Source of the DNA: a virus
Lineage: Duplodnaviria; Heunggongvirae; Uroviricota; Caudoviricetes
Reading direction: 5' to 3' (one strand)
Virus record (IMG/VR): IMGVR_UViG_2541047117_000001
Span: 88,841 to 152,840 of that record
Length of the DNA: 64,000 nt
The position numbers were made by a program, and so were the translations under genes. Positions within the stretch are counted from its first letter, which is position 1. Every line of letters starts with the position of its first letter. The notes under the pieces are model-generated. The model saw only the letters and a list, made by a program, of their open reading frames with translations. It was not told the origin of the DNA and ran no database searches. Positions 32,525 through 34,640 of the stretch are shown here, piece after piece.

Positions 32525-32600
32525 TTTCCGAGTAGACGAACTGGTAAAGTCACTAGTCTTTGAAGCTAGAGTTTGGAGGTTCGAAGCCTTCCTTGGAAAT
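32525..32600 (+). tRNA. trnQ: tRNA-Gln(TTG)
   Basis: CTAGT-CTTTGAA-GCTAG. Confidence 0.85.
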
Positions 32601-32610
32601 CGACCAAAGT

Positions 32611-32687
32611 CCATGCTTTGGAAACTAGATATTAGTTTAGTTTAGTTTAGTTTAGTCTAGTATTAGTATCTAGTTTCCAGTGTGTGG
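32611..32687 (+). promoter_or_regulatory. UAG-repeat hairpin overlapping the 5' end of tRNA-His
   Basis: 13-bp perfect arms at 32619-32631 and 32667-32679; (TTTAG)4 interior; 9 TAG triplets. Confidence 0.7.
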
Positions 32688-32748
32688 CGTAATGGTAACG
32701 CAGTGGACTGTGAATCCATGAATGAGAGTTCGATTCTCTCCATGCTGA
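32678..32748 (+). tRNA. trnH: tRNA-His(GTG), non-canonical identity (C-1, A73)
   Basis: GTGGA-CTGTGAA-TCCAT; acceptor stem CAGTGTG/CATGCTG. Confidence 0.85.
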
Positions 32749-32749
32749 T

Positions 32750-32878
32750 TGTTGGTGAGCAACATAAAAACTCAATACACATTCTAGACGTAGGAGCTAG
32801 ACGTTGACAAGCAACATAAAAACTTGAATGATGTGGACGCAGGGGAGTAGCGCCACGTAAAAAACATAACAGCTCCTT
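32750..32878 (+). ncRNA. Three tandem H-type pseudoknots (PK1-3)
   Basis: Manual pairing; compensatory stem-2 change between PK1 and PK2. Confidence 0.65.
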
Positions 32879-33737: not shown

Positions 33738-33750
33738 CCCTCCCTTCAAT

Positions 33751-33822
33751 GCATCCTTAGTTTAAAGTGAAAACGGACTGCTTAAAAGCCGTTGTATGTG
33801 GGTTCGAACCCCACAGGGTGCA
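33751..33822 (+). pseudogene. Aberrant tRNA with an irregular anticodon arm
   Basis: GCATCCT/AGGGTGC acceptor, TTCGAAC T-loop, no canonical 5-bp/7-nt anticodon arm. Confidence 0.65.
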
Positions 33823-33827
33823 TCTTT

Positions 33828-34640
33828 ACTTCGAGGTTTGGCTCTGATAGCGTAACGTGAGTTGCGTAAAGGCAATGTGACAAGTTGCCACCGTGTAAAC
33901 GGTCAATCCAAGCACAATCGACACTCCTAAGTCATCATTATGATGGTGATAGTTTCATGAAATTACGGAGAAAACGCTACGAGGTCAACGATGTAGTAGC
34001 AGTATTGGTTAGCACCAATACACTCCACGCTAAGGTAATGAAGAAGCGAGAGTGAATCGAGAGATTGTACAGTCCGAGTTTAACAAGCAAGGGCGACAAT
34101 CAGTAATGAAAGAGAAATGGTCGAAAGCCAAAGTAACTTTGATTACGGTTTGAGTAGCTAGTTGGCGAAAGAACATGAAGGCGTGTGGTATTTTGTAATC
34201 CAAAAGATTACGAAGCCACTGAGACAGCACGTCTTCTGTCACACAGACTAATAAGATGTTAGATATGGTAATCCAAAGAGATGATTAAAATATGACTAAT
34301 TAAAATTCATACATACAAGCGAAAGCCTGTCTCCTTACATTACGAAGGCAACCTAAATCCCCACAAGAAGTTGAATGGGGAGCATGATGAGTTCGCAAAA
34401 CTCTGATTGTTTGATAGTGAATTGCATGGTTCTCTTAGCAGAGATTAATAGCGTGGCAACGTTGACAGAATCGGAACTATTGAGTAGTAGTGTAACAGGT
34501 CGCAGAATGCACAGCGACTAATTAAAACGTGCGGTTGTGAGTGATACGTAGTTGCTCCAAAAGAGGATTACGTGGATAAGAGAGGAAGATATAATCTTTC
34601 TAAAGGCACTCAATGCGAGGTTTAATCTCAGCCTACGCAA
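33828..34640 (+). ncRNA. GOLLD-like giant structured RNA (about 810 nt)
   Basis: No credible ORF, dense GNRA-capped stems, lies in a tRNA cluster. Motifs GAGTAGC...GAAAGAACATGA...TGTGGTATTTTG...CAAAAG...CCACTG and 3' TAATCTCAGCCTA match GOLLD as I recall it. Boundaries approximate. Confidence 0.7.

Follow-up and report, generated by a model that had tools for sequence, protein, structure and literature searches.

Comparison of the tRNA-His locus of this phage with those of its relatives indicates that leader and tRNA together form a conserved, bistable precursor RNA. In one of its two states, as the alignments show for the pairing partners, a long leader helix covers the RNase P site together with all of the 5' acceptor strand of tRNA-His. 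The helix that takes nucleotides 1–10 of the tRNA holds, with compensatory changes, across several Bacillus-phage lineages, and judged by sequence comparison the conserved part of the locus is the hairpin and not the array of UAG triplets that it contains. We propose, with moderate confidence, that the hairpin is a duplex processing gate, probably cut by host RNase III, which would govern the 5' maturation of tRNA-His and release a small hairpin RNA.

The tRNA cluster and its leader hairpin

The 64,000 nt analysed here (the window) come from a phage genome of 152,852 bp in IMG/VR, which is complete and has terminal repeats, and the closest database relatives of this phage are phages of the Bacillus cereus group. 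A cluster of 15 tRNAs on the plus strand contains the leader hairpin and a GOLLD RNA (ARAGORN, Rfam). It is flanked by a RecD2-like helicase gene and an HU-like gene on one side and by a YonK-like gene and structural genes on the other. Synteny in the order tRNA-Gln, hairpin, tRNA-His is preserved in most relatives. The features of the locus are:

32525..32601, plus strand: tRNA-Gln(UUG), the next tRNA upstream within this precursor (ARAGORN, Rfam)
32604..32621, plus strand: P0, an upstream "anti-sequestor" hairpin, CCAAAG (32604–32609) pairing with CUUUGG (32616–32621)
32611..32621, plus strand: 5' extension (anti-acceptor segment), pairing with tRNA-His positions +10 to -1, with U32617 opposite U4 as a mismatch
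32622..32635, plus strand: 5' arm of the upper hairpin (AAACUAG...), with double compensatory changes at -8, -9, -11, -13 and -15
32632..32667, plus strand: pentanucleotide array (TTAGT/TAGTT, about 7 copies; Tandem Repeats Finder: period 5, 7.0 copies, 90% matches, score 56)
32663..32677, plus strand: 3' arm of the upper hairpin (...CUAGUUUC), whose last nucleotide is tRNA position -1
32678..32748, plus strand: tRNA-His(GUG) (ARAGORN; Rfam tRNA, 66.8 bits), with C1:G72 and A73

A first-pass annotation of this DNA had described a perfect hairpin of 13 bp, which is real and close to what is found: G32620–A32631 and U32667–C32678 form 12 Watson–Crick pairs, after which the helix runs on via G.U to about 32635/32663. 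At the base, C32611–U32619 pairs with nucleotides 2–10 of tRNA-His, with a U.U mismatch at nucleotide 4. The 3' arm and its extension do take the first ten nucleotides of the tRNA, as had been noticed there, and the CATGCT at 32612–32617 is indeed a copy of the acceptor 3' strand, where it recurs at 32741–32746. The result is a near-continuous duplex of about 26 bp from +10 to -16, with the one U.U mismatch and an additional apical extension, and this has the length of an RNase III stem (about 20 bp or more).

The leader with tRNA nucleotides 1–13 folds at -35.0 kcal/mol (z = -8.2), a value that none of 200 shuffles reached, whereas the opposite strand of the same segment attains only -18.4 kcal/mol. 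When the whole tRNA is included, the leader helix is retained and the acceptor stem is lost in the minimum-energy fold (-51.8 kcal/mol, z = -6.7). Among the 15 tRNAs of the cluster, pairing between leader and tRNA is significant only for tRNA-His; the tRNA-Glu leader, which was checked as a second example, gave no significant pairing (z = -0.38). Directly downstream of the hairpin follows CAGUGUGUGG, the start of the tRNA, with no U-tract and no terminator called. A terminator reading of the hairpin was ruled out, as the U-tract is absent.

Rfam was searched in E-value mode with the window region and five relatives, and no family was found over the hairpin or the large apex domains, where just chance miRNA-like matches of 21–25 bits appeared. 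The tRNA-His leader element is absent from Rfam and no description of it was found in the literature, nor was any paper found on phage tRNA-His leaders or on phage tRNA-His without G-1.

The base of the hairpin (CUUUGGAAAC...GUUUCCAG, 32616–32680) resembles a permuted tRNA-Gln acceptor stem (3' strand CUUGGAAA, 5' strand UUUCCGAG). This likeness could be a coincidence or a trace of the origin of the element; it is not evident in the TsarBomba group.

Conservation and covariation of the hairpin

The same hairpin architecture was identified before tRNA-His in at least 27 distinct Bacillus-phage sequences, belonging to siphoviruses (Tsamsa-, Kirov-, Nate- and Skywalker-type phages and Thrax1–4) as well as to myoviruses of the Bastillevirinae (Deep Blue, CM1, Thurquoise, TsarBomba, BCP78 and McCartney). 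It was also found in the B. cohnii phage BcoS-136 and in IMG/VR and metagenome contigs. A degenerate pattern applied to IMG/VR returned 77 loci, which are mostly chance matches; a tRNA lies at the site in only 28 of them, and 26 of these 28 are tRNA-His.

Pairing was scored in an ungapped register, with the 5' arm anchored on the AAAC motif and the 3' arm on tRNA +1 (26 positions from -16 to +10, 20 distinct arm sets). Standard pairs fill 93.3% of the 520 cells, as against 31–48% when the partner strand is slid, and double compensatory changes occur at nine positions. A MAFFT alignment of 17 sequences (A1) gave a similar picture: 99.0% of helix cells pair (31–45% in slid controls), and two-sided changes are present in 7 pairs and 38 cells, which was matched by none of 500 shuffles. 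Without constraints, RNAalifold returned the helix between the leader and the 5' strand together with the D, anticodon and T arms, and left the acceptor 3' strand unpaired.

Where the tRNA base is invariant, the leader base facing it varies almost exclusively between U and C opposite G, or between A and G opposite U, and the pair is kept. The base of the hairpin stem is conserved in sequence (RAAACU/AGUUUY). The upper stems are wholly different in contig L114, Deep Blue, TsarBomba and BcoS-136, yet 93–99% paired. G.U pairs account for 87 of the 520 helix cells, and pairing drops to 76.5% on the other strand; because of these many G.U pairs and the weak fold of the minus strand, the structure can be assigned to the tRNA-sense RNA.

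Two alternative folds of the precursor

Nucleotides 1–10 of tRNA-His (32678–32687) have two possible partners, the leader or the cloverleaf. The cloverleaf is conserved as well, with 98.8% of its cells paired and 8 pairs doubly changed in the alignment of relatives, and tRNA nucleotides 2, 4 and 7 covary with both alternative partners, the leader and the acceptor 3' strand. Variants of the 5' strand in which both partners still pair are A2 to G2 with U4 to G4 in the TsarBomba group, G7 to A7 in McCartney and G3 to A3 in BcoS-136. Position -1 also covaries with the leader, being C:G in most relatives, A:U in the TsarBomba group and Nate, and U:A in KoopaTroopa. As one and the same 5' strand covaries with the leader and with the acceptor 3' strand, the RNA is bistable, and the helix masking the 5' end of tRNA-His is conserved with covariation in three ways, between leader, 5' strand and 3' strand.

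A further hairpin, P0, enters this competition. Its loop (32610–32615) contains most of the anti-acceptor segment, and in about half of the relatives it competes, as the comparison shows, with the masking helix for this segment of the leader. P0 is a perfect helix of 6–7 bp in 13 of 23 relatives, where it occurs in covarying versions (CCAAAG/CUUUGG, CCAAGG/CCUUGG and ACGAAG/CUUCGU), and it is missing in about 10 of the 23.

According to nearest-neighbour energies, the masked state is favoured across the relatives by 3.8–16.7 kcal/mol in folds without P0. Once 22 nt of upstream sequence are added, the advantage is 0.8–11.9 kcal/mol, and 0.8–6.0 kcal/mol in the relatives that possess P0. These energies omit the tertiary structure and modifications of the tRNA, and the margin of the masked state is small enough for tertiary structure to matter. 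The cloverleaf might prevail even in the uncut precursor, which RNase P would then process directly.

The idea that the leader serves as a chaperone against misfolding is not needed, as tRNA-His alone folds its full acceptor stem at minimum energy in 20 usable relatives. A score of 0/7 for the acceptor stem in TsarBomba arose because the ARAGORN call is one base too long.

Maturation of tRNA-His

Among tRNAs, tRNA-His is the one whose 5' end needs special handling, as it carries an extra nucleotide at -1. The canonical bacterial feature, an encoded G-1 paired with C73, is absent from the window, where N-1 is C and thus no G-1 is encoded; CCA is not encoded either. All hairpin-linked tRNA-His genes have C1:G72 and A73, and their position -1 is C, A or U but never G. 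In the two G-1-encoding lineages that were sampled (Enterococcus Schiekvirus and Erwinia phiEa21-4), no long leader helix was found. These lineages are too few to call an association between the absence of G-1 and the leader helix, but they motivate the reading, described below, in which RNase III would leave the tRNA with an extra 5' nucleotide. A Thg1-like enzyme, which could add G-1, was not found in the phage genome.

As a processing gate, the element would work as follows. The masking helix would form first during transcription, so that the precursor would be trapped. The long helix would then be cut by a nuclease specific for double strands, most likely RNase III of the host, and the leader would lose its intramolecular advantage, whereupon the upstream piece would snap into P0 and the cloverleaf could form. 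A small hairpin RNA of about 50–75 nt would be released, like the stable RNA III before the tRNA-His of phage T5. The host enzyme would have to act here, because no RNase III was found in the phage genome. For a modelled RNase III-type cut with the geometry of T5 RNA III, the two-piece complex (-28.2 kcal/mol) and P0 plus cloverleaf (-27.8 kcal/mol) are equal in energy, which suggests that cutting would release the tRNA.

The RNase III step in phage T4 was reportedly shown genetically and biochemically, whereas in Bacillus phages we infer it. A participation of RNase III in T4 tRNA maturation is mentioned in PMC4810235, which cites McClain 1979, and the likeness lies in the reported use of a host nuclease specific for double strands to process phage tRNAs out of a polycistronic precursor. 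The effect of a masking helix on RNase P is known from an engineered RNase P riboswitch, in which a hairpin over positions -1 to -4 blocks RNase P and its opening allows processing (PMC7897497). Both the synthetic riboswitch and the phage element place a sequestor hairpin over the 5' leader of a pre-tRNA; unlike the phage element, the riboswitch is engineered, is controlled by a ligand and masks only the leader, whereas the phage element occurs in nature, is not known to bind a ligand and takes nucleotides 1–10 of the tRNA as well. Should the helix determine or gate the 5' end of the tRNA, the phages would have a natural equivalent of this riboswitch, the unexplained "stable RNA III" of T5 would gain a function, and there would be an explanation of how odd phage tRNA-His species become usable.

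Comparison with RNA III of phage T5

RNA III of T5 (rnaIII, T5s01; L095:6285–6390, minus strand) ends exactly at tRNA-His, and its closing helix enters the tRNA by 5–7 nt. The ends annotated in GenBank leave a 2-nt 3' overhang, which is a signature of RNase III, and the next base is U-1 of tRNA-His. The annotated ends thus fit a model in which RNase III would make the 5' end of tRNA-His, at -1. The same helix before tRNA-His is present in two divergent Demerecviridae, PRF-SP12 and Erwinia phage KEY. In the window and its relatives too, the element adjoins tRNA-His and its closing helix includes the first tRNA nucleotides.

The two systems also share a tRNA-His without encoded G-1 (U-1 and C73 in T5) and an upstream partner strand that lies in the preceding spacer or RNA. 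They differ in that T5 RNA III is a structured RNA of 106–150 nt from phages of Gram-negative hosts, whereas the apex of the Bacillus-phage array hairpin is a simple loop or repeat. BLAST in either direction between the Bacillus-phage element and T5 RNA III gave no cross-hits, and no Rfam family covers either of them. Since no sequence homology can be detected between the Bacillus-phage helices and those of T5, their likeness may reflect convergence or a coincidence in two lineages. In T5, the strand that pairs with the start of tRNA-His consists of the 3' CCA end of RNA I and four spacer bases.

Alternative explanations

A tentative alternative to the processing gate is that the hairpin is the gene of a small stable RNA, which would be freed by RNase P and RNase Z without RNase III, while its pairing with the start of the tRNA would just delay or order processing. 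Small stable non-tRNA RNAs are known between phage tRNA genes from species 1 and 2 of T4, which are liberated by tRNA processing; we know of no pairing of these with the acceptor strand of a neighbouring tRNA. Several observations would be explained by a stable RNA: T5 RNA III occupies the same position and is annotated as such, the base of the stem is conserved in sequence, and four or five relatives have a structured, covarying apex domain of about 105 nt. In addition, the hairpin is intact beside a damaged tRNA-His in Thurquoise, where the D arm of the tRNA is deleted, and in Izhevsk, where its 3' acceptor strand is replaced, and the hairpin RNA could have a job of its own. However, the apex, which would be the likeliest trans-acting part, is hypervariable, and the extension into tRNA nucleotides 1–10 and the competing P0 are selected features that a free-standing small RNA would not need. 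Furthermore, a helix starting at -1 should hinder RNase P (PMC7897497).

Somewhat more doubtful is a variant in which RNase III would cut the helix overlapping the start of the tRNA 1 nt before +1, so that the tRNA would keep an extra 5' nucleotide and RNase P would be bypassed. A -1 nucleotide made by RNase III would carry the 5'-phosphate needed by HisRS, whereas RNase P would otherwise trim the tRNA to +1. In the Bacillus phages, formation of P0 would pull the severed leader fragment off the tRNA, and the UAG array would be a bystander.

It might also be argued that the leader is a neutral by-product, kept only because horizontal transfer has recently spread a Gln–His cassette, and that it pairs with the tRNA by accident. 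The tRNA-His genes are 92–98% identical among many of the hairpin-bearing phages, and part of the conservation is therefore due to shared ancestry. Against an accidental pairing stand the unrelated upper stems described above, in which pairing persists, and the finding that the leader has changed to match an altered tRNA 5' strand in the TsarBomba group, BcoS-136, McCartney and Nate. This explanation is thus regarded as improbable, and the gate is preferred.

The UAG array and the apex of the hairpin

The nine UAG triplets are located where the first-pass annotation had placed them, with TAG starts at 32626, 32633, 32638, 32643, 32648, 32653, 32658, 32664 and 32671 and spacers of 4, 2, 2, 2, 2, 2, 3 and 4 nt. 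Four TAGs with 2-nt spacers occur at a single site of the window (3 overlapping matches against 0.01 expected), and an array of at least four TAGs at a single site of the whole 152,852-bp genome, which upholds and extends the earlier statement that no other such array was seen in the window. Clusters of three TAGs elsewhere in the genome are as frequent as matches to a reversed-pattern control.

The pentamer array forms the apex of the hairpin and overlaps the inner ends of both arms. A sister phage (L009, IMGVR_UViG_2822641076), which is 91–96% identical over 13.5 kb of aligned DNA, has an identical stem with an apex of 5 nt and a single TAGTT unit, and the array was found in none of the other relatives (26 or more distinct) in which it was sought. 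The array thus shows what characterises a microsatellite, namely short head-to-tail units that close relatives have in different numbers. Of the nine UAGs, four lie in the stem, in a CUAG palindrome and a G.U-paired UUAG/UUAG motif, and five were added by the pentamer expansion. The CUAG and UUAG stem motifs are common to siphovirus-type relatives, while myovirus-type stems have other letters there.

Because the sister and all relatives are without the array and four UAGs belong to the stem, the array is a recent product of slippage, a microsatellite that arose in a hypervariable apex, and the nine UAGs have no conserved role. The apex ranges from 5 to 114 nt with unrelated sequences, and measures about 5–30 nt outside the members with a large domain. 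The sole predicted effect of the array is a longer helix, with a modelled hairpin stability of -35.0 kcal/mol in the array phage and -29.7 kcal/mol in the sister phage. The locus also illustrates how a conspicuous array of repeats may amount to no more than a stutter on top of a functional element.

A structured, covarying domain of about 105 nt is located at the apex in Skywalker, Thrax3, BcoS-136 and two contigs, and it has no match in Rfam. It was found only at the apex position of the hairpin (Skywalker, L007:197–299; also L006, L011, L017, L109 and L111), has several covarying pairs and is common to B. anthracis phages and a B. cohnii phage.

The first-pass annotation had read the array as a histidine switch, in which HutP would free tRNA-His, or as a sponge for HutP or TRAP. 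On this explanation, host HutP with histidine, or TRAP with tryptophan, would bind the array, open the hairpin and release the tRNA, or the RNA would titrate these proteins. TRAP sites, as in the trp leader, trpG and trpP, consist of nine to eleven (G/U)AG triplets 2–3 nt apart, HutP sites overlap an intrinsic terminator (hairpin and U-tract) that gates downstream genes, and both proteins bind single strands. The spacing in the phage has some resemblance to both. Seven consecutive UAGs have spacers of 2–3 nt, a period like that of TRAP sites, with one more UAG on each side at 4 nt, and for HutP a permissive reading takes the UAGs at 32626/33/38 and 32658/64/71 on either side of a 17-nt gap, the array being in fact continuous with a period of 5 nt. 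In the model site of HutP, XAG triplets spaced by U4 (4 nt, in the crystal RNA) stand in two groups of three on either side of a 17-nt linker (PMC2425495). A review gives spacers of 2–4 nt and a linker of 20 nt, and also reports HutP orthologues in B. cereus and B. anthracis (PMC12591593). Moreover, UAG-N4-UAG is often kept on each arm in siphovirus-type relatives, and the array is unique in the genome. Read permissively, spacing alone does not exclude putative HutP binding in the array phage.

Nevertheless, a role of HutP or TRAP is judged very unlikely, both as a switch and as a sponge. The triplets are predicted to be base-paired within the hairpin, which does not suit two single-strand binders, and no terminator overlaps the site, as no U-tract lies downstream. 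Clusters of triplets are not conserved in the homologous leaders: besides the absence of the array from the close sister and from every other relative, these have 1–5 UAGs each and none in a 3 + 3 arrangement, and the myovirus- and Skywalker-type hairpins hold just 1–3 scattered in the stem. Searches of the phage genome for HutP (PF09021) and TRAP (PF02081) gave no match. In hosts of the B. cereus group, trp is regulated through T-boxes, and to our knowledge mtrB, the gene for TRAP, is lacking. The HutP-responsive hut terminator and the TRAP-binding trp leader of B. subtilis resemble the phage locus in having spaced (N/U/G)AG triplets with a hairpin in a Bacillus-related RNA; unlike them, the phage array is unconserved, predicted to be paired and without a terminator, would control a tRNA and not an operon, and has no cognate gene in the phage. 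It had been proposed to check whether relatives keep UAG arrays linked to tRNA-His; they lack the linkage of the array, but that of the hairpin is kept. Nothing links the hairpin to histidine sensing.

A DNA palindrome without RNA function, be it a cruciform, a target of recombination or of a homing endonuclease, or the remains of a mobile element, is hardly credible as an explanation of the locus, since the G.U cells of the helix (87 of 520) turn into C.A mismatches in DNA or in the opposite strand, the minus strand folds at only half the energy and the compensatory changes follow the tRNA 5' strand, although an HNH endonuclease gene is located just upstream in Thrax1, a NinG gene splits the cluster in CM1 and the apex is a hotspot of insertions and repeats.

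Other elements of the tRNA clusters

A 15-nt direct repeat, AGCAACATAAAAACT, is present in two copies (32758–32772 and 32810–32824, plus strand) in the 133-nt spacer between tRNA-His and tRNA-Thr. Straight after two tRNA-Tyr genes, ARAGORN called a "tRNA-???" at 33750–33824 (plus strand), which has an irregular anticodon loop with the anticodon "aa" and a score of 44.5 bits against the Rfam tRNA model. In Thrax3, a weak match to YrlA (Y RNA-like) was found 3' of tRNA-Met in the tRNA cluster (L006:1072–1175; 37.5 bits against a gathering score of 69, E = 8e-6). The GOLLD RNA of the window is full-length (34176–34634, plus strand; Rfam RF02032, 204.6 bits, E = 2.8e-57) and lies amid the tRNA cluster, between the irregular tRNA and tRNA-Ser.
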